DNA from: a bacterium
Lineage (GTDB): Bacteria > Krumholzibacteriota > Krumholzibacteriia > LZORAL124-64-63
Reading direction: 5' to 3'
Assembly: GCA_018814885.1 (NCBI GenBank)
Contig: JAHIYU010000072.1
Span: 2,211-66,210, forward strand
Length of the DNA: 64,000 nucleotides
Shown here: in pieces, positions 1 through 50,540 of the stretch
How positions within the stretch are numbered: position 1 is the first letter of the stretch
How the letters are laid out: every line of letters starts with the position of its first letter
The notes under the pieces: generated by a model
What the model was told of the DNA's origin: nothing
Database searches by the model: none
What the model saw: only the letters and a program-made list of their open reading frames with translations
Program-made: the position numbers and the translations under genes

Positions 1-2
1 TC

Positions 3-1376
3 ACCGTCGAGTTCGTGGTCTCCGACGACGCGGAGGCGTACCAGGCGGAGCTCCACGGCGAGCTGATCGTGGGCGACGTGGATCCCGGCGCGCCCGTCGG
101 CCCCGACGCCTACGGCTACTACGCCCTCGACAGCGCCGACATCGACTACCCGGCGGTGGTGCCGGCGTACCGCTGGACGCACCTTAATCCCGCCTACGGC
201 GGCGCGGGCGTCGAGGTGCCCTTCGCGAGCGACAACGCCTTCGCGGCGGTGGGCCTGCCCTTCGCCTTCCGGTACTACGGCCAGACCTACTCGGGGCAGA
301 TCAGGATCAGCGAGAACGGCTGGATCAGCTTCGACACCAGCGACGAATTCGAGTTCTACAACTGGCCGCTGCCCAGCAGCCACGGCAACCATTCGGTCGT
401 CGCGCCCTTCTGGGACAACTTCGATCCCACGCTGGAGGGCACCGGCGGCGTCTTCACGCGTCACGACGCCGCGGCGGGGACCTTCACTGTGGAGTGGAGC
501 AACATGCTGCACTACCTCTCGACGGTGGACGACGTCGATCCGCCCGTGGACGACGCGCAAACCTTCCAGCTCGTGCTGTTCGACCCCGCCGTCCACGCCA
601 CCCCGACCGGCGACGGCGAGATCGAGTTCCTGTACCGGCAGGTGATCAACGCCGACCATCTGCGCCAGTTCGCGACGGTCGGCCTGGAGAGCCCCGACGA
701 GACGGACGGCCTGGAGCTGACCTACGCGGGCCTCTATGCGCCGGGCGTGGCGCCCATCGGGCCCGGCCTGGCCGTCAAGCTGACCACCAAGCCGCCCGTA
801 TACGATCCCTTCGCGGTAGAGACGTTCACGGCCGAGCGGTCTGCCGCGGGCGCTACCCTCGCCTGGAGCGTCGTCGACACGCGGCCGGTCACGGGCTGGA
901 TCGTGACGCGGCGCGACGCCACCGGCGAGACCGTGCTGACCGCCGAACCGCTGGCGCCGGGCGCGCGCGAGTTCCTCGACGCCGGCGGCACCGGCGAGGG
1001 GGAGACCGCCTACCGGCTGATCTCGCTGCACCCCTACGGGCACCGCACCGACGCCGGCACGACGACCCTCGAGGCCACCGCCGGCGGCGAGGGCCGGGTG
1101 CGCTTCTCGCTGTTCCCGGTACAGCCCAATCCGGCGCGGGGTGACGCGCGCATCGGCTTCGCCCTGCCGCAGGGCGGACCCGTGATGCTGCGCGTATACG
1201 ACGTGGCCGGACGCCTGGTGCGCGTGCTGCTCGACGGCGAGATGCCCTCGGGCCCCTCGCAGCTCACCTGGGACGGCCGCACGGCAGACGGCCAGGAGGC
1301 CGCGGCCGGCGTGTACTTCACCAGGCTCGAGAGCGCCGGACGCGTGCAGACCCAGAAGCTGCTGCTGGTGAGATAG
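3..1376 (+). CDS. Secreted protein with C-terminal FlgD-Ig-like / T9SS-type sorting domain; 5' end lies outside the window
   Basis: ORF is open from the window edge. The C-terminal ~85 aa (FSLFPVQPNPARGD...VYFTRLESAGRVQTQKLLLV) matches the FlgD-like / Por-secretion tail pattern that recurs on three other proteins here. Confidence 0.55.
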   Translation, partial: TVEFVVSDDAEAYQAELHGELIVGDVDPGAPVGPDAYGYYALDSADIDYPAVVPAYRWTHLNPAYGGAGVEVPFASDNAFAAVGLPFAFRYYGQTYSGQIRISENGWISFDTSDEFEFYNWPLPSSHGNHSVVAPFWDNFDPTLEGTGGVFTRHDAAAGTFTVEWSNMLHYLSTVDDVDPPVDDAQTFQLVLFDPAVHATPTGDGEIEFLYRQVINADHLRQFATVGLESPDETDGLELTYAGLYAPGVAPIGPGLAVKLTTKPPVYDPFAVETFTAERSAAGATLAWSVVDTRPVTGWIVTRRDATGETVLTAEPLAPGAREFLDAGGTGEGETAYRLISLHPYGHRTDAGTTTLEATAGGEGRVRFSLFPVQPNPARGDARIGFALPQGGPVMLRVYDVAGRLVRVLLDGEMPSGPSQLTWDGRTADGQEAAAGVYFTRLESAGRVQTQKLLLVR

Positions 1377-1387
1377 GAGCGCGAGAC

Positions 1388-2551
1388 GTGAGGTTCATCC
1401 TGTTCTTGCTGGCCGTGATCACGATCCTCGGGCTGTGGGAGATGGCGCGGCACCGCTACATGCGTCGTCGCATACCCCTGCGCATCCACGTGAACGGCAG
1501 CCGGGGCAAATCCTCCGTTACGCGCCTGATCGCCGCGGGCCTGCATGCTGGAGGACTGCGCACGTGCGCCAAGACCACCGGTTCGGCGGCGCGCTTCATC
1601 CACGTCGACGGCAGCGAATCCCCGATCGTGAGGCACGGTTCGCCCAACATCCGCGAGCAGCTGCGCGTCTTCCGGCAGGCGGTGTCGGAGAAGGCCGAGG
1701 CGCTGGTGATCGAGTGCATGGCGGTCAGGCCGGACCTGCAGTGGACCTGCGAGCACCGCATCGTCGGCAGCACCCACGGCGTGGTCACCAACGTGCGTTC
1801 CGACCACCTGGAAGTGCAGGGCCCCCGGCTCGAGGACGTGGCGCGCGGCCTGGCGGGCACCATCCCATGCAACGCCGCCTTCTTCACGGGGGAGGAGACC
1901 TTTGCGCCCTATCTCGAGCAGCAGGCGCGGCGGCGCGGCTCCCGCTTCCAGCGGACCGTCCCCTCCACGGTGAGCGAGGAGGATCTGGCTCCCTTCACCT
2001 ATGTCGAGTTCGCGGAGAACGTGAGCCTGGCTCTCGACGTCTGCGAGGCGGCCGGCGTGCAGCGGTGCAAGGCGCTGGAGGGCATGTGGAAGGTGCGCCC
2101 CGACGTGGGCGCCCTCGACCGCGTGCGCATCGACGTGCCGGGCAAGGAGGTCCACTTCGTCAACGCCTTCGCGGCCAACGATCCCGAATCCACGGCGCGG
2201 ATCTGGGAGCACCTGGGCCTGTCGAAGAGCCCCGAAGCGGCGATCGTGCTCTACAACAACCGGGCGGACCGCATGCGGCGCGCCCGCGACCTGGCTCCCC
2301 TCTTCGGCGACACGATAACCGCCCGCCGCTACGTGCTGGTGGGCGAATCGACGGCGCAACTCTCCGATCTCTTCGGCCGGCGCGTGCCGCGCGACAGCGT
2401 CGTGGACCTGGGCGGGCTGGACGCGGCCGAGGCCTGGCGCAGACTCGTCGAGATCTGCGGCGAGCGGGCCACCGTGGTGGGCGTCGGGAACATCGGCGGG
2501 GCGGGCATGGCCCTGCTCGATCTGCTGAGGGAGAAGGAGGTGGCGCCGTGA
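1388..2551 (+). CDS. pgsB: Poly-gamma-glutamate synthase PgsB/CapB (Mur-ligase-like amide ligase)
   Basis: Short N-terminal TM helix, then the P-loop NGSRGKSSVTRLI typical of CapB/PgsB; length 387 aa. The stop overlaps the pgsC start (GTGA). Confidence 0.85.
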   Translation: MRFILFLLAVITILGLWEMARHRYMRRRIPLRIHVNGSRGKSSVTRLIAAGLHAGGLRTCAKTTGSAARFIHVDGSESPIVRHGSPNIREQLRVFRQAVSEKAEALVIECMAVRPDLQWTCEHRIVGSTHGVVTNVRSDHLEVQGPRLEDVARGLAGTIPCNAAFFTGEETFAPYLEQQARRRGSRFQRTVPSTVSEEDLAPFTYVEFAENVSLALDVCEAAGVQRCKALEGMWKVRPDVGALDRVRIDVPGKEVHFVNAFAANDPESTARIWEHLGLSKSPEAAIVLYNNRADRMRRARDLAPLFGDTITARRYVLVGESTAQLSDLFGRRVPRDSVVDLGGLDAAEAWRRLVEICGERATVVGVGNIGGAGMALLDLLREKEVAP

Positions 2552-3021
2552 TCATCCAGGCCATCGGCTTGGGGCTCGTGGTCAGCCTCGTCTTCTCTGA
2601 GATCATGGGCGTGGCGGCGGGCGGTCTCATCGTGCCGGGGTACATCGCCCTTCACCTGCACCAGCCGCTGCGCGTGGCGGGCACCATCGTCGCTGCCATG
2701 CTCACCTACGGCACCGTCCAGCTGCTGAGCCGGTTCATCCTGCTCTACGGCCGGCGCACCCTGGTCTTCAGCGTGCTGGTGGGCTTCGTCTTCGGCTATC
2801 TGACGCGCTACGTGCTGGTCTTCAACGCCATGCTCGATACGGGGCTGGACGTGTCGATCGTGCAGTCCATCGGCTACATCATCCCCGGCCTGATCGCCTA
2901 CTGGATGCATCGCCAGGGCGTGATCGAGACGATCAGCACGATGATCATGGCGGCTTTCCTGGTCCGGCTGGCGCTGGTCCTGGCACACGGAGGCAGGCTT
3001 GTTGACATGGCTATCGGCTAG
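2548..3021 (+). CDS. pgsC: Poly-gamma-glutamate biosynthesis membrane protein PgsC/CapC
   Basis: About 157-aa polytopic membrane protein (IQAIGLGLVVSLVFSEIMG...IIPGLIAYWMHRQG) directly coupled to pgsB. Only the 3' part of the long 1435..3021 ORF is taken; its GTG at 2548 is in frame. Confidence 0.8.
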   Translation: MIIQAIGLGLVVSLVFSEIMGVAAGGLIVPGYIALHLHQPLRVAGTIVAAMLTYGTVQLLSRFILLYGRRTLVFSVLVGFVFGYLTRYVLVFNAMLDTGLDVSIVQSIGYIIPGLIAYWMHRQGVIETISTMIMAAFLVRLALVLAHGGRLVDMAIG

Positions 3022-4135
3022 CCGCCGCCCCCTGATCCTGGGCGGCCTCGCGGTGCTGGCGCTCCTGCTGCAGGGGGTGCTCGAAAGGACGCGTACGCCC
3101 GTCAAGCAACGAGACTATGAGCTCAAGATGGCCGCGGCCGAGAAGGCGTATGCGGCCTATCTTGCCGTCAGACGCGACCGGCAGATGGATAACGCGACGG
3201 TGGAGCTGGAAAGCGATCCGGCCGGTACTGGGCTGATTGGCCCCGAGGAAAGCAAAATCACCAACTCGCCAGGTGATCTGGTTGCCAAGCAGACATGCCT
3301 GAATCCTAACTGGGCGGCGGTGATCGTGGACATGTTCCGACACGCCGGCCTGAAGGCGGGCGACTCCGTGGTCATCGCCGTCACGGGCTCGTTTCCCGGC
3401 CTCAACATCGCCGTCTACGCTGCGGTGGAGGCCATGGAGCTCCTGCCGGTCGTCATCACATCGGTGAGCGCGTCCCATTGGGGTGCCAGTGATCCCTTGT
3501 TCACCTGGCTCGACATGGAAAAACTCTTCATCAAGGAGGGGGTCTTTGACGTGCGATCCGCCGCTGCGACACTCGGCGCCAGCGACGACATGGGGCGGGG
3601 CCTCACCCCGACAGGGTGCCAAATGGTCCGCGCCGCCATCGACCGCAACGATATTCCCTTACTTGCCTCGAGAGATATCGAGGATGCTATAACGGTCCGC
3701 ATGGCCTTCATCGAGGAGTGCTTGGATGGACGCCGCTGTCGGGCCTATGTCAACGTGGGTGGCGGTGTGGCAAGCCTGGGTGCCACACGGAACAAGCATC
3801 TTATTAAACGCGGGTTGTCCACGACTCTCGGAGTGAAAAACTGGCCGCGAAAGGGGTGCATGGTCCGGATGTCGGACAAGGGTGTGCCGGTGATTCACCT
3901 ACTGAATATCAGCGACCTGGCCCATGATTATGGACTGCCGCAGCCACCGGACTATGATTACTTGGCGACCCCCGGCGAGGGGGACATATTCAAGCGCGAC
4001 AGCTACCGCTACTCGCTGGTGGCCGTGTTCTTCCTGGTCTATGCCGGACTATGCGCCGTTGTTCTGGCGCCGGAGGTCCGCCGCAAATTGCTTCCCCCCT
4101 TTGGCTTCGTCAGACGTGTAGGAGATGTGAAATGA
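2999..4135 (+). CDS. Membrane-anchored protein of the poly-gamma-glutamate locus; candidate PgsA substitute (poly-gamma-glutamate system protein, TIGR04332-like)
   Basis: TTG start overlaps the pgsC 3' end after a GGAGG RBS. N-terminal TM anchor. It sits where PgsA/CapA normally lies, but no metallophosphatase motifs are visible. Lower GC than its neighbours. Confidence 0.45.
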   Translation: MLTWLSASRRPLILGGLAVLALLLQGVLERTRTPVKQRDYELKMAAAEKAYAAYLAVRRDRQMDNATVELESDPAGTGLIGPEESKITNSPGDLVAKQTCLNPNWAAVIVDMFRHAGLKAGDSVVIAVTGSFPGLNIAVYAAVEAMELLPVVITSVSASHWGASDPLFTWLDMEKLFIKEGVFDVRSAAATLGASDDMGRGLTPTGCQMVRAAIDRNDIPLLASRDIEDAITVRMAFIEECLDGRRCRAYVNVGGGVASLGATRNKHLIKRGLSTTLGVKNWPRKGCMVRMSDKGVPVIHLLNISDLAHDYGLPQPPDYDYLATPGEGDIFKRDSYRYSLVAVFFLVYAGLCAVVLAPEVRRKLLPPFGFVRRVGDVK

Positions 4136-5058
4136 CCTCTCGCCTTGTTATTGCGAGCCGTCTATCCGCCGCCGTGGCTTGCTTTACGCTGCTCTGCCTT
4201 TCGGGACCCGCAACGGCTGCCATGCGTTGGCGCACCTTGGAAACCACGGTCGACCTGGGCGAGACGTGCCTGACAGTGGATGGGCGACAAGTGAACTACA
4301 AGCGTCTGGATCCTGAGGAACCTGTCGTCATTAGAATTCGCGGACCGCGGAAGGTGAAGATCATCTGCCGCTACCTCTTCGAACCGAACGAACAGGGGCG
4401 TCGCGGCTTCACCCTGCACGTGGCGATAGACGGCGCTCAGATATTGAGCAAGGTGTTCCGCGGCTCGCGGCAGAACGATGTGTTCCTTTGCGGCGAGGAA
4501 GCGACCCCCGCCGGCGACTTGCGGCGCGCCTATGTTACGGTTGGCGATGGGTGGCACGAACTGGGGGTCACCGCCATCGCCACGGAGCAACAGGGAGCGG
4601 TCGTCGCGCGGTTCTTTCGCGAGACCAAGACCCCGCCTGCAAAATTGGTCTCGTATGCTCCTGAGCAATACGCCGGCGTGACGCAAATACAGTTCGAAAG
4701 CGGCAACAGCTTCTCCTATTACACCTTCACGCCCGAGCTCCCGCTGACTTGTGAGGTGACTGGCCCCACCAAGCTCACCGTCTGGACGAGGCTCGATTTC
4801 GACCACACCATGCATAAAAGTCAGCCCTACACCTTGGAGGCCGTGATCGACGGTGACCCGTGGCAGACCTTCCACTACAACGCGAAGAAGGAGGAAGCCG
4901 CCGTGTACACGGACCGTCCGGACGTCCTGCCTGGCAAGCGCATGACAATGGAACTGCCGCTGGGCAAGGGCCGGCACCGCGTGGAGATCCGCTGTGTGCG
5001 GCCCGAGGGCTGCTGCGTGACCGCCATGATCCGCATACCCGCGAAGGACGTCAGGTAG
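4132..5058 (+). CDS. Hypothetical secreted protein (signal peptide), Cys-containing
   Basis: ATG at 4132 overlaps the upstream stop (ATGA). Signal peptide MTSRLVIASRLSAAVACFTLLCLSGPATAA. No recognisable domain. Confidence 0.5.
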   Translation: MTSRLVIASRLSAAVACFTLLCLSGPATAAMRWRTLETTVDLGETCLTVDGRQVNYKRLDPEEPVVIRIRGPRKVKIICRYLFEPNEQGRRGFTLHVAIDGAQILSKVFRGSRQNDVFLCGEEATPAGDLRRAYVTVGDGWHELGVTAIATEQQGAVVARFFRETKTPPAKLVSYAPEQYAGVTQIQFESGNSFSYYTFTPELPLTCEVTGPTKLTVWTRLDFDHTMHKSQPYTLEAVIDGDPWQTFHYNAKKEEAAVYTDRPDVLPGKRMTMELPLGKGRHRVEIRCVRPEGCCVTAMIRIPAKDVR

Positions 5059-5065
5059 GATAGAC

Positions 5066-6259
5066 ATGCACTTAATCACCAACAGGGGGATGATCCCGGG
5101 ACTGCTGCTGTTGGCGGTGCTGCTGCTCGAGACGTCCCCGTCCGTCGCCCAACAGCCGCCGGCCGGGACCAGCGCCCGGGGCCAGGGACTGGCCGCCCCC
5201 GAGTCGTTGCAGAAGAGCCCGGGCCGGAAGTCGTCGGGCGAGAAGAAGAAATCCAAGTGGAAGACCAGCGTGACCGTCGGTCTGGAGACGATCTACGACG
5301 ACAACTTCCTGCGCTATTCGGACGACTACCTGGACGACTTCCACGCGGGAACCTACCCCTACAAGTTCCAGATCGACCGCCAGGACACGCACATCCTCGC
5401 GCCCAGCATAGACATGTACGCCCAGCGCAGGCTGATCTCCTGGGGCGACACCCGCTTCCGCTTCAATTTCAAGCGCTGGCAGTACATCCAGGGGCAGATC
5501 AAGTCCAACATGGACTTCGACTACTATGTCCGGCAGTACCTGCCCGGCGGCCGCAGCGTGGAGCTCTGGTACAACTACGCGCCCGAGCAGTACATCCGCG
5601 AACTGTCGTACCGGACGCCGCTGCAGCCCCCCAGCGATCCTCTCGAGTGGGGCGAGTTCCGCTACACGCGCAACGTCTTCGGCCTGATCTGCAGGCAGAA
5701 GGTGCGCAGCAACATGAACCTCAAGCTGCTCCTGAACCGGTCCCTGCGTTATTACAACCAGGCGTTCATGGAGAACGACATCAAGGACCTCGGTCTGCGC
5801 GGCACGCTCTACTGGGACGTGCACAAGGCCTGGCGCGTGACCATGGACTACGGCTTCTCCGACGCGCCCGCCCGCGGCGCCAACGAGGTGGGGGAGACGC
5901 TCGAGACCAGCGACGACTCAGATCCCTCCTACAAGCGCGACCTCTACCAGATCGACGTCGGCTGGGCGCCCAAGTGGGCCGAGCGATACTTCGACAAGGT
6001 CTCCCTGAGCGGCCAGTACCAGATCTACTGGTTCACCTCGGCCAAGAGCCTCGCCGACGACCCCTACCACGTGGGGCGCAAGGACATGGTCTACGCGGTG
6101 CAACTGGATTTCGACCGCGAGCTCAACAAGCAGGTCGATCTTAAAATCGGCGTCAAGTACACGCGGCGGACGGTAGAGTCTCCCTGGAAGGGCGACATCG
6201 CCGAGGACAAGGACTACAACCAGCGCCGGTACTGGATCGGCCTGACGTACAAGTTGTAA
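5066..6259 (+). CDS. Putative outer-membrane beta-barrel protein
   Basis: Signal peptide (MIPGLLLLAVLLL...VAQQ). Alternating amphipathic beta-strand pattern rich in Y/W/F. Ends GLTYKL. Same strand and tight spacing behind the pgs genes. Confidence 0.5.
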   Translation: MHLITNRGMIPGLLLLAVLLLETSPSVAQQPPAGTSARGQGLAAPESLQKSPGRKSSGEKKKSKWKTSVTVGLETIYDDNFLRYSDDYLDDFHAGTYPYKFQIDRQDTHILAPSIDMYAQRRLISWGDTRFRFNFKRWQYIQGQIKSNMDFDYYVRQYLPGGRSVELWYNYAPEQYIRELSYRTPLQPPSDPLEWGEFRYTRNVFGLICRQKVRSNMNLKLLLNRSLRYYNQAFMENDIKDLGLRGTLYWDVHKAWRVTMDYGFSDAPARGANEVGETLETSDDSDPSYKRDLYQIDVGWAPKWAERYFDKVSLSGQYQIYWFTSAKSLADDPYHVGRKDMVYAVQLDFDRELNKQVDLKIGVKYTRRTVESPWKGDIAEDKDYNQRRYWIGLTYKL

Positions 6260-6268
6260 GGAGCCGGA

Positions 6269-8659
6269 ATGACGAAGCGCGACATGATGAGGTTTCCCGT
6301 GCTGGTGGCGATCGCGGCGTTGCTGGGAGGTTGCGGCGCGGCCGACCTCTACGTGGCGCCCGAGTCCCCCTTCCACATCGTCGGCAGGGTGCCCCTGCCC
6401 AGCGCCAACGAAGGCGTCGCCGCCCTCGGACAGTACGCCTACGTGGCCGGCGGGCAGGCCGGGCTGCACGTGATCGACATCTCCGATCCCGGCGACCCGC
6501 GGCTGATCGATACCATCAACACCACCAAGTACGCGGGCAGCATCGAGTTGATCCGCACCTTCGCCGACCAGACCCTGCTGGACATCGCGCTGGTCGTCGA
6601 GGGCACCGAGGGCATCACGACCTACGACGTGACCGATCCGTTCGACGTGGTCTCCTTCAACCAGGGCACCACGGCCGTGGACGGCAACCGCATCTTCGTC
6701 GAGGAAACGGACGATCCCGACGAGCCCTTCGTCGTCTACCTGGCCGAGAGCTGGAAGGGCGTGCGCATCTTCGAGTCGACGCCCGATTTCCCCGGCGTGC
6801 TGGCGTACAACGGCGTCTTCGCGGGCACGCAGGGCTACGCCATGGGCATCGCCGCCAAGGACGGCTACGCCTACGTTGCCGACGACGAGATGGGCCTGGC
6901 GGTTCTCGACGTGCGCGAGCGCGTGCTGGGCGCCGTGCGGCTCGTGAGCTGGTGCGACTCGCCGGGCAACGCCCTCGACGTGGCCGTCGACGGCGACTAC
7001 GCCTACGTGGCCGACGGCACCGAGGGCATCGCGATCTACCGCATCGACGGCGGCGAGACGCCGGTCAAGCTCGCCCAGCTCGACCTGACCGCCTACAGCC
7101 GCTCGATCGTGGTCGCCCGCGGCTACGCGCTGCTCTGCGCCGCCGACGGCGGCGTGCACGTGGTGGACGTGCGCGACCCGGAAAACCCCGCCTACGCCGG
7201 GACCGTCGAGACGGGCTACGCCTCCGATCTCTGCATCGCCCCCTCCGGTCACGTGCTCGTGGCCGACCGCCAGCAGGGCATCCTGGTGCTGGCGGGACCC
7301 GACCTGTCCAGCGACACCCGCGCACCAGCCCCCGTGACGACACTCGCCGGCGCGTTCCTGAGCTCATCCTCGGTCCGCCTCACCTGGCAGGCCACCGGCG
7401 ACGACGGCTACTACGGCACCGCCAGCGCCTACGAGATGCGCTACGCCCAGACCGCCATCCTGGACGAGGCCGACTGGGAAGCGGCGCAGCCCGTCGCCGG
7501 ACTGCCCGCCCCGACGGACGCGGGCAGCGAGCAATCGGCCGACGTGACGGGCCTGCTGCAGGAGACCACCTGGCACTTCGCCCTGAAGGTCCTCGACGAG
7601 GAAGGACACGTGTCCGACCTGTCCAACGACGCGGCCGTGACCACCCCCTCCGGCACCTTCCTGAGCGGCGCCGGCGTCGAGCCCGACTTCGGGACCCTCG
7701 CCACGGAATTCACCTTCGAGGTGACCTACTTCGACGACGACGGCGACGAACCGGTCACCCGCGACGCTGAGATCGACGGCCTGGTCTCGGCGATGGCCTA
7801 CGTGTCGGGCGAGCCCGAGACCGGCTCCCTGTATCGCCTGGCGACAACTCTCGCCGCCGGCGTCCACAGCTACCGCTTCCTCTTCGACGACGGTCAGGGC
7901 AACCTCGCGACCGCCGAGCCGGCGGACCGGCCCGTGGTCGGCACGGCCGCTTTCGTCATGGGCAGCCCGGGCGGCGAGACCGGTCGGCGCTACGACGAGG
8001 TCCAGTTCGAGGTCGCGCTGACCCGCGAAATCGTGGTCGCGCCCGTGGAGGTGACCCAGCTCGCCTGGAACGCGCTCATGCCCGTGAATCCCTCGACCTT
8101 CGTGGGCGACGATCTGCCGGTGCACAACGTCAGCTGGTTCGACGCCATCGACTACTGCAACGCCCTGTCCGACCAGGACGGCCTCGTCCTCGCCTACACC
8201 GTGGACGGTCCCTACGTGACCTGGCATCGCGGCGCCGACGGCTGGCGCCTGCCCACCGAGGCCGAGTGGGAGTACCACTGCCGCGCCGGCACCGCGACCG
8301 GCCTCTACAACGGCGAGCTCACGGAGGTCCACTGCGGCGCCGACGCCCTCCTGGACGCCGCCGGCTGGTACTGTGGCAACGCCGACGCGCCCCGAGCGAA
8401 GCAGCAGAAGGCCGCCAACGCGTTTGGCATGTACGACATGCTGGGCAACGTCCGCGAGTGGTGCTGGGACTGGTACGGCCCCTATCCCGAGGGACCGGTC
8501 CTGGACCCCGAGGGCCCCGCCGACGGCGAGCAGCGCGTAGTGCGCGGCGGCAGCTGGCACTACTACGCCCGCGACTGCCGCAGCGCGGCCCGCGGCACCT
8601 TCTATCCGACCTCGGCGGACGACTTCGTGGGCTTCCGCGTGGTGCGGACCCCGGATTAA
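6269..8659 (+). CDS. Lipoprotein with LVIVD beta-propeller repeats and a C-terminal FGE-sulfatase (formylglycine-generating-enzyme-like) domain
   Basis: Lipobox LLGGC. Repeated LHVIDISDP / YAYVADDEMGLAVLDV / YAYVADGTEGIAIY blocks (LVIVD repeat). C-terminus WRLPTEAEWEY...GNVREWCWDWY...RGGSWHYYARDCRSAARG matches SUMF1/FGE domain signatures. Confidence 0.7.
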   Translation: MTKRDMMRFPVLVAIAALLGGCGAADLYVAPESPFHIVGRVPLPSANEGVAALGQYAYVAGGQAGLHVIDISDPGDPRLIDTINTTKYAGSIELIRTFADQTLLDIALVVEGTEGITTYDVTDPFDVVSFNQGTTAVDGNRIFVEETDDPDEPFVVYLAESWKGVRIFESTPDFPGVLAYNGVFAGTQGYAMGIAAKDGYAYVADDEMGLAVLDVRERVLGAVRLVSWCDSPGNALDVAVDGDYAYVADGTEGIAIYRIDGGETPVKLAQLDLTAYSRSIVVARGYALLCAADGGVHVVDVRDPENPAYAGTVETGYASDLCIAPSGHVLVADRQQGILVLAGPDLSSDTRAPAPVTTLAGAFLSSSSVRLTWQATGDDGYYGTASAYEMRYAQTAILDEADWEAAQPVAGLPAPTDAGSEQSADVTGLLQETTWHFALKVLDEEGHVSDLSNDAAVTTPSGTFLSGAGVEPDFGTLATEFTFEVTYFDDDGDEPVTRDAEIDGLVSAMAYVSGEPETGSLYRLATTLAAGVHSYRFLFDDGQGNLATAEPADRPVVGTAAFVMGSPGGETGRRYDEVQFEVALTREIVVAPVEVTQLAWNALMPVNPSTFVGDDLPVHNVSWFDAIDYCNALSDQDGLVLAYTVDGPYVTWHRGADGWRLPTEAEWEYHCRAGTATGLYNGELTEVHCGADALLDAAGWYCGNADAPRAKQQKAANAFGMYDMLGNVREWCWDWYGPYPEGPVLDPEGPADGEQRVVRGGSWHYYARDCRSAARGTFYPTSADDFVGFRVVRTPD

Positions 8660-8673
8660 CGAGAGGAAGGCGC

Positions 8674-9771
8674 GTGGCAGAGAAGCAGCGCTTCGAGTTC
8701 ATCGACCAGTTCCGCGGGCTCGTCGGCGTCATGATGGCCCTCGGTCACAGCAACTACTACTTCAACTCGGTGTGGCTCAGCCTCGATCCGCTGGACCCGT
8801 TCTTCGGCACCGCCGGTCAGTTCTGGCTGCGCTACATGGGATACCTCTGCGCGCCGGGATTCCTGATGATGAACGGCGCGATGGTCTACTACGCCTACTG
8901 GCGCCGCATCAAGAACGGCGTCCGGGACGGGCGCGCCCGCTGGGACTTCGTGCAGCGCGGGCTCTTCCTGATCGCCGTGCAGCTCGTGTGGGTCAACGCC
9001 AGCTGGAGCGGCTTCACCCGGCTGCGCCTGGACCACTTCGGGATCATCGCCACCATCGGCGCCTCGATGCTGCTGCTGATCCTGATGGTGCGCTGGCGCT
9101 GGCAATGGCGCCTGGCGGCGGCGGCCGCGCTGTTCGCGGTCCATTTGCTGCTGCTGCGCATCCCCTACGATCACGCCTCCTGGACCCACATCCCCATGCA
9201 GCTCTTCGTGGACGCCGGCGACTACAACAAGTACCCGATCATCCCCTGGTTCGCCCTGGCGGTCGGGGGCAGCGTCATGGCCCACTTCTGGTTCGAGGCC
9301 TGGCGCGACAATGCCACCCGCGCAAACCGCAGCATGCTCATCGGCGCGGTCCTGGTGCTGGCGGCCTGGGGCGTGCGCTGGTGGGGCGGCGGCTACGGCA
9401 ACATCTTCCCCCACGGCGAATTCCTGAGCTGGGCCTTCCTGCTGGTCCAGAAATACCCGCCCAGCCTGGCGCACCAGCTGTGGTTCGCGGGCGCGGTCAT
9501 CTTCATGGTGGGCCTGTTCTGCCGCATGGGCATGTACACGAAGCTCCTGCGGCCTTTCGCCATCGTCGGGCGCGTGCCCATGTTCTTCTACGCCGTGCAC
9601 ATCCCGCTGCTGGCCATCTTCACGCGTCGCTTCGGCGTCTACTACCGCGAGGGGGAGGTGCTGGCTTCCTTCGTCGGACTGGTGGGGTTGCTGGCGGTCA
9701 TGATGCCTCTTGCGATCTGGTTCGGGGGGGTCAAGCGGCGGTCGCGGAACTGGTTCATACGCATGATTTGA
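8674..9771 (+). CDS. Polytopic membrane acyltransferase-like protein (DUF1624 / heparan-alpha-glucosaminide N-acetyltransferase-like)
   Basis: GTG start at 8674 after a GAGGAAGG RBS, 15 nt past the upstream stop. N-terminus RFEFIDQFRGLVGVMMAL resembles the DUF1624 family start. About 10 predicted TM helices. Confidence 0.55.
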   Translation: MAEKQRFEFIDQFRGLVGVMMALGHSNYYFNSVWLSLDPLDPFFGTAGQFWLRYMGYLCAPGFLMMNGAMVYYAYWRRIKNGVRDGRARWDFVQRGLFLIAVQLVWVNASWSGFTRLRLDHFGIIATIGASMLLLILMVRWRWQWRLAAAAALFAVHLLLLRIPYDHASWTHIPMQLFVDAGDYNKYPIIPWFALAVGGSVMAHFWFEAWRDNATRANRSMLIGAVLVLAAWGVRWWGGGYGNIFPHGEFLSWAFLLVQKYPPSLAHQLWFAGAVIFMVGLFCRMGMYTKLLRPFAIVGRVPMFFYAVHIPLLAIFTRRFGVYYREGEVLASFVGLVGLLAVMMPLAIWFGGVKRRSRNWFIRMI

Positions 9772-10572: not shown

Positions 10573-11601
10573 TCAGCGGTACAGCCGCTTGACATCGCCC
10601 CAGGCGCTGCGCTCGTCTCCCGCGTCGCAGTCCGTGTCGTCGTAGGTGATGACGCCAGTGCCGGTCATGGCCGTGCGGTCCAGGACGCAGCACTGCAGCA
10701 GTACGGTGCTGCTGCCCGTCACCAGCCCCGCCTTGCCGTCGGGAGCCGCGTTGCCTTCGAACAGGACGTCCGTGGCGACGACTAGCGCGCCGAAATCCAG
10801 GTAGAGACCGCCGCCGGCCCCGGTGGCGTCGTTGTAGACCAGCTCGCAATCGCCGAGACGCGTCAGCGTACCCTTGCAGGCGATGGCGCCGCCGACTCCG
10901 GCGCGGTTGCCCGTAAAAACGCACTTGTCGAGCAGCGGCGCGTTGTCGCCGCCCGTGGCGTGGAAGCCGCCGCCCCAGCCGCCGGCGCGGTTGTTCGTGA
11001 AGATGCAGCCGCGCAGCACCGGATCCGCGAGGCGGCTGCAGAAGCCGCCGCCGGACCCCGCGTCGGCCACGTTGCCGGCGAAGACGCACCGCTCCAGCAG
11101 GGGCGCCGATTCGTTGCAGTAGAAGCCCGCGCCGTCGAGGCCCGTGATGCAGCCGATGAAGACGCAGTCGCGGAAGGCCACGTCGGCGTGGTTGCAGAAG
11201 ACGGCGCCCGCGGCCGCATCCATCCCGTTGGCGAAGGTGAGGCCTTCGACCGCCGTGGCGGCGGAGAGCCCCTCGCAGGAGAGGATGCGTCCCCGCCAGA
11301 CGGCATCCACGGTCACGCAGTCCGCCTCGCCGGTCGTGCTGCGCAGCACGACGCCTTCGGTCATCTCGAGTCCGGGTTCGGGGTAGACGCCGCAGGAGAC
11401 CAGGACGGTGTCGCCGGCGGCCGCGGCGGCGAGACCGGCCCCGATGGTGGGCAGCTCGTCCGGCACGCGCCAGGTGCGGGCGGTGGACGGTGCGGCGGCG
11501 GCGCATACGATCATCCAGATCGACAGCAGCGGCCACGCCTGTGCCGGCACGGCCAATAACCGGTTGCGATCGCTTCCGTCTTGCCTTTTTCTGGATGTCA
11601 T
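10573..11601 (-). CDS. Secreted right-handed beta-helix repeat protein carrying the conserved C-terminal WGxVKxLY tag
   Basis: Repeated GxxFxxCxFxxN-type beta-helix rungs (CVFIGC, CVFAGN, CIFTNN, CVFTGN). C-terminus ...DERSAWGDVKRLYR-stop. Start taken at the Met preceding the long hydrophobic signal region (MTSRKR...), so the start is uncertain. Confidence 0.55.
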   Translation of the reverse strand: MTSRKRQDGSDRNRLLAVPAQAWPLLSIWMIVCAAAAPSTARTWRVPDELPTIGAGLAAAAAGDTVLVSCGVYPEPGLEMTEGVVLRSTTGEADCVTVDAVWRGRILSCEGLSAATAVEGLTFANGMDAAAGAVFCNHADVAFRDCVFIGCITGLDGAGFYCNESAPLLERCVFAGNVADAGSGGGFCSRLADPVLRGCIFTNNRAGGWGGGFHATGGDNAPLLDKCVFTGNRAGVGGAIACKGTLTRLGDCELVYNDATGAGGGLYLDFGALVVATDVLFEGNAAPDGKAGLVTGSSTVLLQCCVLDRTAMTGTGVITYDDTDCDAGDERSAWGDVKRLYR

Positions 11602-11629
11602 ACCACGACCCTTACCCGGGAGACCGACG

Positions 11630-12319
11630 ATGCCCGCGATTACCAGCATGCCTCCGGAGATGCTCGCCTTCCTGTCCGACCTCGAGCGGAACAACCGGCG
11701 CGAGTGGTTCCAGTCCCAGAAGTCGCGTTACGAGATGACCGTGAAGGAACCGGCTCTGGGATTCGTCGCGGACTTCGCCCCGCGCCTGGCCAGGATCAGT
11801 CCCCACTTCGAGGCCGATCCCCGCCCGGTCGGCGGCTCGCTGTTCCGCATCTACCGCGACACGCGGTTCAGCCGCGACAAGACACCCTACAAGACCCACG
11901 TGGGCATCCAGTTCCGTCACGCGCGGGGCAAGTCGGTCCACGCCCCGGGCTTCTACCTCCACGTGGACCCCTACCGGCCCTTCGCCGGTCTCGGCGTCTG
12001 GCATCCCGACGGACCCACGCTCGCGTCGATCCGCGACGCCATCGTAGCAGATCCAGACGGTTGGCGGAAAGCCGCACACGGCAAGGCGCTGCGCCGGGTC
12101 TGGGACGTCACGGGCGATACCCTCAAGCGCCCCCCGCGCGGCTACCCGCAGGATCATCCCTTCGTCGAGGATCTCAAGCTCAAGGACTTCACCGCGATCG
12201 CCGCCCTGACGCCCGACGACCTGACCGCGCCGGATTTCGCGCGCGACCTGGCGGCTCTGTTCCGCAAGGGCGCCCCGCTGATGGGCTTCCTCTGCCGGGC
12301 CGTGGGCGTGGCGTACTGA
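11630..12319 (+). CDS. DUF2461 (TIGR02453) family protein
   Basis: N-terminus MPAITSMPPEMLAFLSDLERNNRREWF and the conserved FRIYRDTRFSRDKTPYKTH block. Confidence 0.7.
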   Translation: MPAITSMPPEMLAFLSDLERNNRREWFQSQKSRYEMTVKEPALGFVADFAPRLARISPHFEADPRPVGGSLFRIYRDTRFSRDKTPYKTHVGIQFRHARGKSVHAPGFYLHVDPYRPFAGLGVWHPDGPTLASIRDAIVADPDGWRKAAHGKALRRVWDVTGDTLKRPPRGYPQDHPFVEDLKLKDFTAIAALTPDDLTAPDFARDLAALFRKGAPLMGFLCRAVGVAY

Positions 12320-12332
12320 TCCGCGCCGGATC

Positions 12333-15179
12333 TCACTTCATGAGGGTCACGCGCCGGGTGGCCGTCCCGCCGGCGACGTCGCGGAACCGGATAAGGTAGA
12401 CGCCGCTGGGCGCCCGGTGTCCCGCGTCGTCCTCTCCCCGCCAGGTCATCGCGCCGTGGAGCGCCCGGGTGTCGCGGTCGTAGAGCCTGCGCACGAGGCG
12501 TCCGCGCGTGTCGAAGACGGTCAAGGCGACCGGGCCGGGGCGCGTCGCGCGCCAGGTGATGCGGGTCTGGGGATTGAAGGGATTGGGATAGACGGTCAAC
12601 TCGGGTCCCGCTCCCGCGTCGGGAAGCTGCGGCTCCATTTCCACGGCGACGGCATGCCTGTCGTCGGCGAAGGCGATGTCGTCGACAAAGAAGCCCTCCC
12701 CGCGCACCGCGGCATCGGAGGCGAAGACGAAGCGGAAGGTGACCGCGTCCTTGTCCCGGTCCGAGAGGTCGAACACGGCGCCCCGCCAGTCGCGGATCAC
12801 CCCGGACCAGCCGGGCCGGGAGCCCAGGGCCGAGACGCTGTCGTGGGTGTAGCCCGTCATCGGCTCCAGCAGGACCCATTCATCGTCGACCAGCAGTTCC
12901 AGGTTCACGCCGTCGAAACTCGATTCCGTGGAACACCAGTAGTGGAAGCTGAGGCGGAGCAGGTCCGTGTCCGGGTACGTGTAGGTGGCGGATGTGAGGG
13001 TGGCGTAGGCGTTGTTCAGGTATTGACCATCCAGGCCCACGGCCCAGCACCTGTGGGGCGAGAAGGCGGACTCGGGTCCCTGCGTCGGTACGCCCCAGGC
13101 CCAGTGGAGGCCGAAGGCCTGGTACCCGCCGGACATCGTGAACGACTCCACGGCGGGGGGTACGCGCACGTATTTCGTGTTGAAGCCGGTCTCGGTCGCC
13201 ACGGGCGTGATGATCTCGGCGTGCGCACCGTGCCAGGGCTTGTGGTCGTAGAGGATCGTGACTTCCTTGCCCGCGGCCAGGCCGGGCATGTCGTACGCCC
13301 CGTTCTCGCGCGTATAGGCGGGCAGGATCGGCTTGCCGGGCACCCAGACGCGGATGCCGGCGAGCTGGAGCGTGTCCATCCCGGCCACGAGCCCGGACAG
13401 GGTGACGTGTGGCAACCTGTTCAGGGAGATGTCCCGCGTCTGGTCGACGCCTGGCGTCACGTACGTCTCGATCGAGGCCATCTCGTAGAAATACTCGTCG
13501 AACTCGAGGGTCATCGGTCCGGCCGGCAGGTTGATGCTGTACAGACCGTCGGCGCCGGTGGTGATCCTCCGTTCGTGTTCCGGGAGAACGATGATTGCGT
13601 AGGGGATCGGCAGGCTCGATGTGCTGTCGGTGACCCGTCCGTTGAGGTTGCCGACGGAAATCGAGGCGAGCGACCAGGCGGCTGCGATGTCGGGGCGCGG
13701 GCCCACGTGTTGGGTGTCCGGCAGGTAGGGAGTGCCTGTCACGGTGAGCACTTCCCGCATGACTTGGGGATTCAGCGAGAAGCCGAGTTGCGCCCTGGCC
13801 ATGCCCTGCATGTCGGCCACGGCGCCGGCGATGATGGCGGACGCGCTCGAGGTGCCGCTGAACGAATCGGTGTACCACTGCTCTTCGGGGAACCCCTCGA
13901 CGGCTCCCTGCAGGTCGCCGTAGGCGCAGGTCGCGACCTCGCGGCCCCAGCAGTGTAGATCCAGGCGTTGTCCGTAGTTGGAGAACCACTCCGGTTCCAG
14001 GTCGGGGCGGGCGGCGCCGCACATGATGGCCCCGGAATTGCGATAATCGGGATCGAAGAGCGGACGGTATGCGGGGCCGTCCAGATCCTGCTGCCCGTTG
14101 CCGCCGGCCTCGCAGACGATCCGTCCGGAGGCGGTGGCGATGAGAATGGCGTCGAAGTTGTCCTGCCAGTACTCGACGGGCACGTAGCCGTATTCGCCGA
14201 TGCCGGTGGCGTTCGGTCCCGGCGCGTGCAGCTCGATCAGGATGATGTCGCCGCCGGCGATGATCTGGGCGGCCTTCAGGATGGCTTCGGGCAGGGATTG
14301 CGAGAAGATGGACGCGCCGCCGATCTGGCACGACGGAGCCACGCCCCGCACGCCGGAACCGTTGTCGGCGCCCCTGATCACTCCCTGCACGGCCGTGCCG
14401 TGATTGCGCCAGCTCTGGTCGTCGAACGGCGTGCCGCTGGTGTAGAAGGGGCTCGTCAGATCCTCGTGGTTCCACAGCCAGGACAGCTCGACGTCCACGA
14501 CCTTGACGTTCTCGCCCCGGCCGCCCGGCGTCTGCGCCACCGCGAGGGCGCCGATCCCCTCGGGCGGCGCGCCCAGATAGCCCTGCAGGAGCGAGTAATC
14601 CTGCGAATCGACGGCGTCCGGGGCGGCGTAATGGGAGTCGTCGTGATCATCATCGGAAGCGGGAGGCGTGTAGATTCCCGTGAACGCGTCGAAGCCGAGC
14701 GTGGCCGGCACGTAAGATGGTTCCAGGTAGGCCGTCTCCACGGACGGGTCCGCGAGCAGCCTCTCCACTATCCGCAGCAGGGAGGCGCGGTCCCTCGCGT
14801 CCGGCTCGATCACGCCGTAGGTGTTCAGGTCCGGCAGGTCGAGGCCGGAGCGGGCCTCCGCCGCGGCTCGCAGGGCATCGATGTCCGCCGGCTCCGTCCG
14901 GAAACGACGGCGCAACGTGCTGCCCGGCGCAGCGTTCTCGATCAGGCGCGCGATCCTGCCGGCGGAAGTCTTGTCCGTGGCGGCGACGCCGTCGCCGGTG
15001 ACTGTGATTCGCGCGGTGTCACTGAATTTCACGATCACGCGGCCGCTGGGCGCGGCCGTCTGCATGCCGGGTATTCTCTGCTTGGGCACGGCCCTGCGCG
15101 CCAGCGGCGCCGCCGCCACGGACGCAGCGGCGAGCGTCACCGCCAGCAGGAGGGTGATCGGTGCTGTGCGCAGGGTCAT
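12333..15179 (-). CDS. Secreted S8-family serine peptidase with C-terminal FlgD-Ig-like / T9SS-type sorting domain
   Basis: Signal peptide MTLRTAPITLLLAVTLAAASVAAAP. His motif HGTAVQGVI, Ser motif SGTSSASAIIAGAVADM. C-terminal tail LTVYPNPFNPQTRITW...VYLIRFRDVAGGTATRRVTLMK. Start placed at an in-frame ATG with RBS. Confidence 0.7.
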   Translation of the reverse strand: MTLRTAPITLLLAVTLAAASVAAAPLARRAVPKQRIPGMQTAAPSGRVIVKFSDTARITVTGDGVAATDKTSAGRIARLIENAAPGSTLRRRFRTEPADIDALRAAAEARSGLDLPDLNTYGVIEPDARDRASLLRIVERLLADPSVETAYLEPSYVPATLGFDAFTGIYTPPASDDDHDDSHYAAPDAVDSQDYSLLQGYLGAPPEGIGALAVAQTPGGRGENVKVVDVELSWLWNHEDLTSPFYTSGTPFDDQSWRNHGTAVQGVIRGADNGSGVRGVAPSCQIGGASIFSQSLPEAILKAAQIIAGGDIILIELHAPGPNATGIGEYGYVPVEYWQDNFDAILIATASGRIVCEAGGNGQQDLDGPAYRPLFDPDYRNSGAIMCGAARPDLEPEWFSNYGQRLDLHCWGREVATCAYGDLQGAVEGFPEEQWYTDSFSGTSSASAIIAGAVADMQGMARAQLGFSLNPQVMREVLTVTGTPYLPDTQHVGPRPDIAAAWSLASISVGNLNGRVTDSTSSLPIPYAIIVLPEHERRITTGADGLYSINLPAGPMTLEFDEYFYEMASIETYVTPGVDQTRDISLNRLPHVTLSGLVAGMDTLQLAGIRVWVPGKPILPAYTRENGAYDMPGLAAGKEVTILYDHKPWHGAHAEIITPVATETGFNTKYVRVPPAVESFTMSGGYQAFGLHWAWGVPTQGPESAFSPHRCWAVGLDGQYLNNAYATLTSATYTYPDTDLLRLSFHYWCSTESSFDGVNLELLVDDEWVLLEPMTGYTHDSVSALGSRPGWSGVIRDWRGAVFDLSDRDKDAVTFRFVFASDAAVRGEGFFVDDIAFADDRHAVAVEMEPQLPDAGAGPELTVYPNPFNPQTRITWRATRPGPVALTVFDTRGRLVRRLYDRDTRALHGAMTWRGEDDAGHRAPSGVYLIRFRDVAGGTATRRVTLMK

Positions 15180-15412
15180 CGTTTCTCCGGGCGTAGCGGT
15201 CCGTAAATCGACCGCTGGAAACAACCTCCGCTTGTGGTGATCTCGGCAGCGGTGTTATCACTATACTGACAAACGGGCACGCTTGGCAAACCTGTTGGGG
15301 CCCCTGCCGGGCCGGTTCCCGGGGTCGCTCGACTCGGTTGCGTGTCGCGGAACCCGCTCTTTGTTACGTATCTGGTCCTGTCTTCGTTACACGACTCGGG
15401 AGGTTGCATCGC

Positions 15413-42052: not shown

Positions 42053-42066
42053 GACTGCGGCGATCC

Positions 42067-47338: not shown

Positions 47339-47537
47339 GGCCCGATGTTAACGGCAGCGCCGAGCGCGGGGAAGGCCGGAAGTCGTTGAAATCCGTGATC
47401 AAATCGGGACAAATGTACGGTATTATATATACTGGTGAAGATTGGTCATGTGCTCGCATGGTCGCCGCGGCGGCATCCCATTGGTGTGCCCGGGGAAGGC
47501 TGCGGGCTGTAAGGTGTCAATTTGCAGGAGGTTGAAA

Positions 47538-50500: not shown

Positions 50501-50540
50501 CGGCCGCACGGCCACCCACAAGATGACCCTGGCCAAGTAG
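47538..50540 (+). CDS. Secreted ~1000-aa putative zinc metalloprotease (HExxH) with C-terminal FlgD-Ig-like / T9SS-type sorting domain
   Basis: AGGAGG RBS before ATG 47538. Signal peptide MHRRFLTLVLLSAALVVSGSSFAGG. CAHEFKHASQ supplies HExxH. Tail LKGNYPNPFNPSTKVSFAIP...YMARLSAAGRTATHKMTLAK. Confidence 0.6.
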   Translation: MHRRFLTLVLLSAALVVSGSSFAGGHEGYAFLDRLDEARESGALSADEALLYKFYYVFDQDKLPVDYRPDSFPPLKCATPLIQEFEQSRGSLQDATVASVEAMLAPKGGDKATYISPSGIFRFTYLTTGGDAVPSTDTNPANGIPDFVEWCAGYMDYSWDFEITTMGFTAPPLSPYYEMNFESMGAYGYTQVVTGTRTRITLHNTFLGFPANDDPEGNQKGAAKVTCAHEFKHASQRAQSGWSEGGWVELDATWMEDIAYDVVNDYYNYLWSGCGITSPQLSLDDGGSGSYEDCIWQHWMSETFGNQIIIDFWNWRSSHTSQLVLSSYNAILATYGSSLAEGYGLFSGWNFPTNIRALPGIGYEEAADFPNSSVTSHASYPYTTNGTLDHLAAKMLYLGGFQAGEPGTLHIAFDGDDATSMRLVAVIRKRDGTGVFEPIPLDFFMDADVELSVPLAEIYTVGIVASNTAQTGTARPWSITISKNLPDPLVDLSSPTLDAELDIDATGMQGLTITNVGAAGSILAYDVVLMQDSPVAKTAAPRSLSVPSREQTRAMPELQRGGELAPSRYAGDCEFGNTDLGSVQGYYGTWWYGNEVYAYRINPADYDCSICDAGFNVRAMHMVLYLEPTSTPGMVAHLMEASGDCTTPGAIIDSSAPMTVSGIAAAGLYIIEIPCDFVCSDMGAEYFLAVEFTDTNGPVGIAIDTTPQSCVCYNDWGSGWVDVVSQYSFAGDFFIYADVDCCGEPDPEVTVIQPNGGEFVAVGASLDMSWTATLLTDVKIDLSRNNGGVWETVLATTPNDGAQSDIATGPTSNQCLLRVSSLDDLYTDVSDAVFTIYDTVPWLSVDIDNGDLGLGENDLLTFTFDATGLAEGVYTGYAVFFSNAASSPDVVTATLTVNDPGTAVGDSPHVFALKGNYPNPFNPSTKVSFAIPEAGQVTIDVLDLQGRVVRTLHSGHLDAGFASVVWDGTDVDGRQMASGTYMARLSAAGRTATHKMTLAK

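Follow-up and report, generated by a model that had tools for sequence, protein, structure and literature searches.

A conserved gene cluster for the probable synthesis of poly-gamma-glutamate and its possible route through the envelope of diderm bacteria

Results

The stretch of DNA analyzed in this work, 64,000 nucleotides of contig JAHIYU010000072.1 from a bacterium of the Krumholzibacteriota (hereafter the window), carries a conserved gene cluster that very probably directs the synthesis of poly-gamma-glutamate (PGA). On balance, we lean towards reading the locus as an operon that makes PGA and also moves the polymer through the envelope of a diderm cell. The cluster comprises g0, coding for a C25-like cargo protein of the type IX secretion system (T9SS), the synthase genes pgsB and pgsC, and genes 3 to 7, whose products are a member of the family TIGR04332, a periplasmic protein, a predicted outer-membrane barrel, a lipoprotein and a membrane-bound acyltransferase, respectively (Table 1). 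The comparative data described below demonstrate that these genes are functionally linked. The existence of a dedicated route for the export or anchoring of PGA, suggested in an earlier note on this DNA, is in agreement with the synteny of the genes and with the fold and localisation of their products, from which we infer the transport itself.

Both synthase genes were recognized with confidence, as the earlier note had claimed. The pgsB product matched the equivalog model TIGR04012 with 413.7 bits (cut-off 222.7) over residues 4-379 of 387 and also matched Mur_ligase_M in Pfam; its first 22 residues are hydrophobic and predict an N-terminal membrane anchor. The pgsC product matched TIGR04011 (123.1 bits, cut-off 96.45) and the Pfam family Caps_synth_CapC (PF14102; 113 bits). 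The two genes are also translationally coupled, overlapping by 4 nucleotides (GTGA), with GTG as the start codon of pgsC.

From position 1 to 9771 the + strand is a single densely packed string of genes, g0 through gene 7. Overlaps also join pgsC to gene 3 (23 nucleotides) and gene 3 to gene 4 (4 nucleotides, ATGA), the true start of gene 4 being the ATG at 4132 rather than the upstream one at 4051. The remaining genes are separated by 11 (g0/pgsB), 7 (gene 4/gene 5), 9 (gene 5/gene 6) and 14 nucleotides (gene 6/gene 7). Purine-rich ribosome-binding sequences precede every start, and no promoter-like or terminator-like signal exceeding the shuffled expectation was found inside the string. Because of the overlaps, the small gaps and the lack of internal terminators, the structure can be considered operon-like. 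The five open reading frames from pgsB to gene 5, described earlier as the locus (1388-6259), are all present on the + strand at those coordinates; however, they represent only the middle of a larger conserved unit, which also embeds g0 on one side and genes 6 and 7 on the other.

The conservation of this unit was checked in 80 related loci retrieved by a genome scan with an alignment of gene 3. These loci are labelled as Krumholzibacteria, Eisenbacteria, Latescibacterota, Ignavibacteriales/Melioribacteraceae and Bacteroidales/Lentimicrobiaceae; some labels of metagenome-assembled genomes ("Fibrobacteraceae" and "Gemmatimonas" among them) should probably not be trusted. The gene order is usually identical (g0-pgsB-pgsC-gene 3-gene 4-gene 5-gene 6-gene 7) in loci whose GC content ranges from 30% to 73%, and it persists as sequence identity falls from 88% to about 25%. 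In the window, and in all the fetched loci that reach far enough upstream, pgsC is followed directly by gene 3. Gene 4 was detected by tblastn in 77 of the 80 loci, the three misses falling at or near contig ends. About 69 loci, belonging to several phylum-level lineages, have gene 5 and about 65 have gene 6; most of the loci also contain g0 and gene 7. Separate gene calls with precomputed Pfam matches agree with this picture. Even the remotest detectable relatives of gene 5 (26% and 32% identity) share their cluster with pgsB, pgsC, genes 3 and 4 and the genes for a C25 peptidase and an LVIVD protein. In three rearranged loci (L075, L079, L082) the cluster is split into two blocks, one formed by pgsB-pgsC-gene 3-gene 4 and the other by gene 5-gene 6 plus g0 and/or gene 7. 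This fits a subdivision into an inner-membrane/periplasm module and an outer-membrane/surface module, as judged from the predicted localisation of the gene products. The earlier note would have been contradicted by a gene 3 belonging to an unrelated family and by secreted and barrel genes lying apart from pgsBC in relatives; instead, gene 3 is a member of TIGR04332 and both genes are syntenic with the synthase.

Indeed, the hidden Markov model comparison suggested for gene 3 gave 291.4 bits against TIGR04332, nearly three times the curated cut-off of 100, with residues 17-317 aligned to positions 6-303 of the 307 of the model. The product lacks the CapA/PgsA motifs, as had been noticed from its sequence: it has no Pfam domain, PGA_cap (PF09587) did not match any of 14 family members (gene 3 and 13 homologues) even at E ≤ 5, and hhalign of the gene 3 profile against the PGA_cap proteins of related loci returned a probability of 0.2%. 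The possibility that gene 3 is a remote PgsA/CapA homologue is therefore ruled out. No sequence relative was found in the PDB. Hydrophobic transmembrane (TM) helices occupy residues 10-30 and 336-361, the latter being followed by an Arg/Lys-rich tail; since they lie near both ends, the domain of about 300 amino acids between them is predicted to lie on the periplasmic side. This domain adopts an alternating beta-alpha fold in the AlphaFold2 model of a fused homologue, with a predicted local distance difference test (pLDDT) score mostly above 80 in the block except for a few loops. About 50 columns are invariant among 21 diverse orthologues (down to 38% identity), including Ser131, Ser155, Ser159, Asp172, Glu174, Arg216 and His300; conservation of this degree is commoner in enzymes or tight interaction surfaces than in passive anchors. 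In the distant locus L081 (6179-9807) the gene 3 homologue is seemingly split (286 + 100 amino acids) and is separated from the gene 4 homologue by two genes of the mobile-element type (DUF1016_N and ORF6N).

The idea that gene 3 replaces PgsA stands in part. A tblastn search of the 64-kb window with a PGA_cap protein detected no PGA_cap gene, matching only the T9SS C-terminal domain (CTD). However, five related loci (L062, L078, L082, L054, L074) harbor TIGR04332 together with a PGA_cap-domain protein of about 1,000 amino acids, which is secreted and combines PKD, PGA_cap and T9SS-CTD domains; TIGR04332 and the PGA_cap domain can therefore coexist in one locus. If CapA were purely a subunit of the synthase, a CapA-like domain outside the cell would not be expected. 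An AAT/C45-like (Ntn-hydrolase-type) protein is also encoded in L062, L076, L078 and L082, and it adjoins the PGA_cap protein in L082, L062 and L078.

The product of gene 4 has a predicted cleavable Sec signal peptide and four conserved cysteines (Cys46, Cys120, Cys288, Cys294), which would fit a periplasmic location. Its predicted model consists of two jelly-roll, carbohydrate-binding-module (CBM)-like beta-sandwich domains in tandem, whose nearest solved analogues in Foldseek are tandem CBM22 modules, PNGase F, malectin-like ectodomains and, weakly, BcsB, a periplasmic subunit of cellulose synthase. No curated family in Pfam or NCBIfam includes it. Clustered at 50%, the family comprises 690 representatives, of which 348 have E ≤ 1e-10; nearly all are either standalone proteins of about 300 amino acids or fusions of about 670. 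In 16 of the 77 related loci, a single continuous open reading frame spans genes 3 and 4, and about 13 of the 120 gene 3 matches listed are 650-660 amino acids long; in one such fusion (P0063) the gene 3 part is 58% and the gene 4 part 39% identical to the proteins of the window. The topology of the fusions, with the second TM helix, an Arg-rich loop and a signal-like third TM helix, implies that the fused gene 4 moiety stays periplasmic. It is thus highly probable, in our opinion, that genes 3 and 4 are functionally coupled to the synthase.

The gene 5 product can be assigned with high confidence to the outer-membrane beta-barrels, as the earlier note had proposed. A signal peptide is followed by a disordered, basic, Lys/Ser/Pro-rich linker (residues 29-65) and by the barrel (66-396); the AlphaFold2 model has a mean pLDDT of 89.2, exceeding 90 in the strands, and a predicted TM-score (pTM) of 0.81. 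All the best 50 of 321 Foldseek matches in the PDB (E ≤ 0.001) are outer-membrane barrels, the matches including OmpG, CymA, Omp32, PgaA, BcsC, AlgE and FadL at 7-12% identity. The protein therefore shows the features of a generic outer-membrane barrel, that is, a signal peptide, a closed antiparallel barrel and a hydrophobic/aromatic C-terminal strand, whose sequence (WIGLTYKL) reads similarly to an outer-membrane-protein beta-signal. No curated family in Pfam or NCBIfam covers gene 5, and its relatives match OMP_b-brl, BBP2_2, DUF2490, OMP_myx_plus and EpsL weakly. Among the candidate assignments, a TonB-dependent receptor can be dismissed, the partial match of 18 bits (cut-off 310) being noise; PorV, PorQ and DUF3570 are unsupported, PorV and PorQ giving no match at E ≤ 1 in gene 5 and 59 homologues. 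Many orthologues (P0128, P0132, P0142 and others) are 500-540 amino acids long, versus 397 here, and the extra length may sit in the N-terminal region.

Always directly downstream of the barrel gene, gene 6 codes for a predicted lipoprotein (lipobox LLGGC) in which Pfam recognizes LVIVD repeats (85.8 bits), that is, a beta-propeller, and a C-terminal, C-type-lectin-like FGE-sulfatase domain (130.8 bits); an fn3-like region is also present. Its score against GldK/PorK is 64 bits (cut-off 350), through the FGE domain only, and no match with PorZ was found. Gene 7, the final conserved gene of the cluster, which is kept after gene 6 in most loci, distant ones included, encodes a transmembrane acyltransferase domain (HGSNAT_cat, 59 bits), an enzyme type which modifies extracytoplasmic amines or hydroxyls.

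As for g0, the fragment within the window matches FlgD_ig, NIDO and Por_Secre_tail, the last being the T9SS C-terminal sorting domain. The full-length orthologue L003:4641-8375, of about 1,250 amino acids, contains a gingipain-fold Peptidase_C25 domain (185 bits). Since the catalytic domain lies outside the window, it was examined in the orthologues by alignment with gingipain R (PDB 1cvr). All 54 orthologues keep the catalytic Cys (Cys244 of RgpB), while in place of the catalytic His (His211 of RgpB) Krumholzibacteria have Trp and the Ignavibacteria-type and Bacteroidales sequences have Glu. Other invariant residues are Arg342, Cys389, Glu392 and His418. The same full-length orthologue scored 39.4 bits against PorU (NF033707; cut-off 420). 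The loss of the His and the low PorU score indicate that g0 is neither a canonical gingipain nor a recognizable PorU; the idea of an active gingipain-type protease, or of a PorU, is weakened accordingly, and its role may be binding or non-canonical catalysis. In almost every Krumholzibacteria locus the gene immediately precedes pgsB, and it belongs to the cluster also in Ignavibacteria-type, Bacteroidales and Eisenbacteria loci. In Krumholzibacteria, it is preceded by a gene for a 540-amino-acid right-handed beta-helix (Pel9A/NosD-like) protein with a T9SS-CTD (L003:3028-4644, L084:2789-4435), and in at least one locus a second C25 peptidase with a gingipain-type propeptide is encoded farther upstream, in a divergently transcribed gene (L084:1-2319). 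Both could be polymer-processing enzymes.

The base composition of the cluster is not homogeneous. The overall GC content of gene 3 (61.3%) and gene 4 (61.8%) is lower than that of pgsB (69.8%), and the GC content at third codon positions (GC3) is 0.75 and 0.77, respectively, versus 0.92-0.94 in g0, pgsB, pgsC and genes 5-7. In intervals of 40 codons, GC3 varies between 0.60 and 0.90 in this tract, between 0.88 and 1.00 in pgsC, gene 5 and gene 6, and between 0.80 and 0.97 in pgsB, and the drop has sharp edges at the start of gene 3 and the end of gene 4. Gene 5 also has a lower total GC content; with a GC3 of 0.93, this reflects the amino acids that it encodes. Most of the orthologous loci lack the dip of genes 3 and 4, and in the closest ones it is faint. 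In pairwise matrices, the window sequences are 71-77% (gene 3) and 61-67% (gene 4) identical to those of L001-L005, which among themselves share 78-90% and 65-79%, respectively; genes 3 and 4 of the window are therefore long-branch outliers with respect to L001-L005, whereas its pgsB, g0 and gene 6 occupy a normal position beside L001 and L004. On the basis of these sequence comparisons, the two genes were probably replaced homologously by the allele of a lower-GC relative, an alternative being a locally accelerated, AT-biased divergence. Given that the low-GC3 tract corresponds exactly to gene 3 plus gene 4, the pair was seemingly exchanged as a unit. The low GC content had been taken earlier as a hint of mosaic origin: the dip is real in genes 3 and 4, but the gene order is ancestral, which rules out an operon built from foreign genes and limits the probable replacement to this segment.

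The coordinates of the genes of the cluster and of other features are reported in Table 1. Outside the cluster, three large consecutive genes encoding a CHAT protein, a caspase-domain protein and a subtilase form a protease-rich trio that could be a signalling or defence module. Other genes of the window code for further predicted surface or secreted proteins, one of them with a T9SS sorting domain; evidently, the organism relies heavily on T9SS-type cargo.

Table 1. Positions of the genes of the PGA cluster and of other features in the window and, where indicated, in a related locus.
Feature	Coordinates	Strand	Description
g0	3-1376	+	3' part (last ~457 codons) of a gene for a ~1,250-aa C25-like protein, cut by the window start
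pgsB	1388-2551	+	PGA synthase amide ligase, Mur-ligase fold; TIGR04012
pgsC	2548-3021	+	integral-membrane synthase subunit; TIGR04011
gene 3	2999-4135	+	TIGR04332, "poly-gamma-glutamate system protein"
gene 4	4132-5058	+	Sec-secreted periplasmic protein, two beta-sandwich domains (predicted)
gene 5	5066-6259	+	predicted outer-membrane beta-barrel, ~14 strands
gene 6	6269-8659	+	lipoprotein with LVIVD repeats and FGE-sulfatase domain
gene 7	8674-9771	+	polytopic membrane protein, HGSNAT_cat (DUF1624) domain
low-GC3 tract	2999-5058	.	exactly gene 3 and gene 4
beta-helix/PMP-repeat protein	10573-11694	-	predicted surface/secreted
S8 subtilase	12333-15224	-	with CarboxypepD_reg and MAM-like domains; predicted surface/secreted
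protease-rich trio	35250-44226	-	1,695-aa TPR + CHAT protein (CHAT 220 bits), caspase-domain (Peptidase_C14) + DUF4384 protein, S8 subtilase; consecutive
T9SS cargo protein	47442-50540	+	1,032-aa protein with T9SS sorting domain; predicted surface/secreted
PKD + PGA_cap + T9SS-CTD protein	L082:6749-9799		related locus

Discussion

According to the model that we propose, PgsB and PgsC would act at the inner membrane, joining glutamate into a polymer at the expense of ATP. The gene 3 product would stand in the place of PgsA/CapA, anchored near both ends and exposing its alpha/beta domain to the periplasm, and the gene 4 product would work with it, binding or guiding the nascent anionic chain in a manner comparable to that of BcsB for cellulose. 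Acting as a putative PgsA substitute, the two proteins would take the growing chain from the active site and pass it across the periplasm to an outer-membrane exit site formed by the gene 5 barrel and the gene 6 lipoprotein; the gene 7 acyltransferase and the g0 protein might then modify, process, organise or tether the polymer at the surface. The single steps do not deserve the same confidence, and in particular we propose the barrel as the export pore only tentatively.

It is useful to compare this organization with the known systems. PgsA of Bacillus is credited with clearing the active site of the growing chain and with carrying this outward (PMC4928254). The cluster shares with the Bacillus PgsBCA(E)/CapBCA(DE) systems adjacent and translationally coupled equivalog orthologues of PgsB and PgsC, followed by a third membrane-anchored protein with its bulk beyond the cytoplasmic membrane. 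However, this third protein does not match PGA_cap and is not PgsA/CapA, no pgsE-like or CapD/GGT gene was identified here, the host is a diderm, and five extra conserved genes are present (gene 4 and those for the barrel, the lipoprotein, the acyltransferase and the C25-like protein). As a member of TIGR04332 adjoining pgsC, gene 3 is placed as the family name implies; the family itself has a bioinformatic definition only, and a full-text search of the literature retrieved no study of it: the accession gave no match, and the name is touched on once, in a Francisella paper on another subject. Gene 4, its fusions and the linked outer-membrane module were not found described in Pfam, NCBIfam or the literature searched.

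A different likeness emerges with the systems for cellulose (BcsA/B/C), alginate (Alg8/44/K/E) and poly-N-acetylglucosamine (PgaA-D), in which a synthase, a periplasmic handler, an outer-membrane barrel and an acyl-modifying enzyme are also encoded in one operon, and whose components BcsB (for gene 4) and PgaA, BcsC and AlgE (for gene 5) appear among the weak Foldseek matches. On the other hand, the polymer made here would be a polyamide formed by an ATP-dependent ligase and not the product of a glycosyltransferase, the barrel, of about 14 strands, lacks a TPR scaffold, a PilZ/c-di-GMP (cyclic di-GMP) module was not seen, and no component shows sequence homology to those of the three systems. 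In mechanism the locus resembles Bcs, Alg and Pga; its family membership is limited to PgsB, PgsC and TIGR04332.

Several observations weigh against the export of the polymer as outlined above. Five loci (L060, L061, L062, L076, L078) harbor pgsBC-gene 3-gene 4 without genes 5 and 6 in the 9-10 kb examined downstream of gene 3, the usual side of these two genes, so a barrel beside the synthase is not obligatory. The gene 5 barrel resembles generic porin folds only (Foldseek TM-scores 0.2-0.64, 7-12% identity); its likeness to the exporters AlgE, PgaA and BcsC is equally generic (TMq 0.34-0.36, 8-11% identity), and with about 14 strands and neither TPR nor periplasmic domain it is unlike them. 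Known exopolymer exporters of the outer membrane have 16-18 strands. Its lumen-facing charge is nearly neutral (22 K/R versus 18 D/E in a crude strand-register count), so that no electropositive conduit is evident. The similarity of gene 4 to BcsB is weak (TM about 0.11 in Foldseek), the invariant Ser, His, Asp and Arg residues suggest that gene 3 may be an enzyme and not a passive PgsA-like subunit, and without its canonical His a protease or transpeptidase role of g0 appears doubtful. Moreover, in these uncultured organisms we infer PGA and its transport from computation.

Part of these observations would be accounted for if PGA were not released as a free capsule, but stayed in the periplasm or tethered to a membrane as a gamma-glutamyl polymer, serving for instance as an osmoprotectant or cation buffer or modifying envelope lipids or proteins. 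Gene 5 would then code for a common porin or a channel for substrates, and the products of genes 6 and 7 would act on the envelope. We consider this unlikely, but it is the main rival of export, and it is kept alive by the lack of exporter-specific features in the barrel and by the neutral lumen charge of the crude count. The likeness of gene 5 to OmpG, CymA and Omp32 at least equals that to polymer exporters, and the enzyme-like residues of gene 3, the loci in which no barrel was found in the fetched sequence, and the action of acyltransferases of the gene 7 type on extracytoplasmic amines or hydroxyls all go in the same direction. However, the barrel-lipoprotein pair is linked to the synthase over phylum-level distances, unlike housekeeping porins, even the remotest homologues of the barrel still reside within pgs clusters, and the T9SS-secreted partners indicate a process occurring at the cell surface.

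The same partners raise the possibility, improbable in our opinion, that the outer-membrane half of the cluster (g0, the barrel and gene 6) is an analogue of the T9SS attachment complex, in which PGA would tether the cargo as A-type lipopolysaccharide (A-LPS) does in Porphyromonas. The T9SS parts include PorU (C25 plus CTD), the outer-membrane barrels PorV and PorQ, the beta-propeller protein PorZ and the FGE-fold lipoprotein PorK/GldK. The architecture encoded here runs parallel to this set, combining a C25-fold protein with CTD, an outer-membrane barrel, a beta-propeller and an FGE-fold lipoprotein with a link to an anionic surface polymer, although the sequence matches behind this parallel are weak and partial. 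The cluster is always accompanied by T9SS-CTD proteins (the C25-like one and, in Krumholzibacteria, also the beta-helix one), and the free terminal amine of PGA could in principle accept the product of a transpeptidation. Nevertheless, none of the components passed the curated cut-off of a T9SS family, the scores against PorU (39 versus 420) and GldK (64 versus 350) being far below it, genes 5 and 6 gave no match with PorV, PorQ or PorZ, the C25 domain has lost the catalytic His needed for sortase-like chemistry, and gene 6 encodes a lipoprotein devoid of a CTD.

It is even harder to believe that the cluster serves the uptake or degradation of environmental PGA or polyamides, with the barrel as an import channel and the C25-like and beta-helix proteins as depolymerases. 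The secreted Pel9A-like beta-helix and peptidase-fold proteins do flank the cluster, and the direction of transport through a barrel cannot be read from its sequence; however, PgsB and PgsC are equivalog-level subunits of a synthase and not catabolic proteins, the C25 domain is without its catalytic His, and the cluster showed no sign of a glutamate/oligopeptide transporter or of a gamma-glutamyl hydrolase (GGT/CapD, PgdS). Finally, that genes 4-7 and g0 are mere neighbours of a pgsB-pgsC-TIGR04332 cassette, with unrelated functions, is scarcely credible: genes 4, 5 and 6 belong to no family with a known role in PGA and five loci are devoid of genes 5 and 6, but the fusions with gene 3 in 16 loci effectively refute the idea for gene 4, and the order kept in about 70 loci (to about 25% identity and over a GC content of 30% to 73%), the linkage of the blocks after rearrangement and the overlaps of starts and stops speak against it for the others.

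The biology of PGA is known almost wholly from the monoderm Bacillus. Our full-text search of the literature found nothing on the export of PGA across an outer membrane, nor on PGA in Krumholzibacteriota. Fusobacterium nucleatum is cited as the first Gram-negative bacterium shown to make PGA, and no outer-membrane route was described there (PMC4928254). The locus described in this work provides the first concrete candidates for the passage of PGA across two membranes in diderms, with a candidate for each missing step: TIGR04332 plus gene 4 as the possible substitute of PgsA, the barrel plus the lipoprotein, and the surface accessory proteins. With candidates named for each step, the question of export becomes testable by heterologous expression. 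The analysis also brings to light at least two protein families new to Pfam and NCBIfam, namely that of gene 4 (about 690 clusters at 50% identity) and that of the gene 5 barrel. If the attachment of T9SS cargo to PGA were true, the cluster would represent a polyamide counterpart of the A-LPS/PorU-PorV-PorQ-PorZ system in bacteria of the Fibrobacterota-Chlorobiota-Bacteroidota (FCB) group. More generally, it is possible that the Krumholzibacteria, Eisenbacteria and Ignavibacteria-type bacteria of sediments, sludge and soils release a polyanionic polyamide or carry it as a coat; such a polymer, if it exists, would be relevant to metal binding, to desiccation and salt tolerance and to the chemistry of the biofilm matrix.

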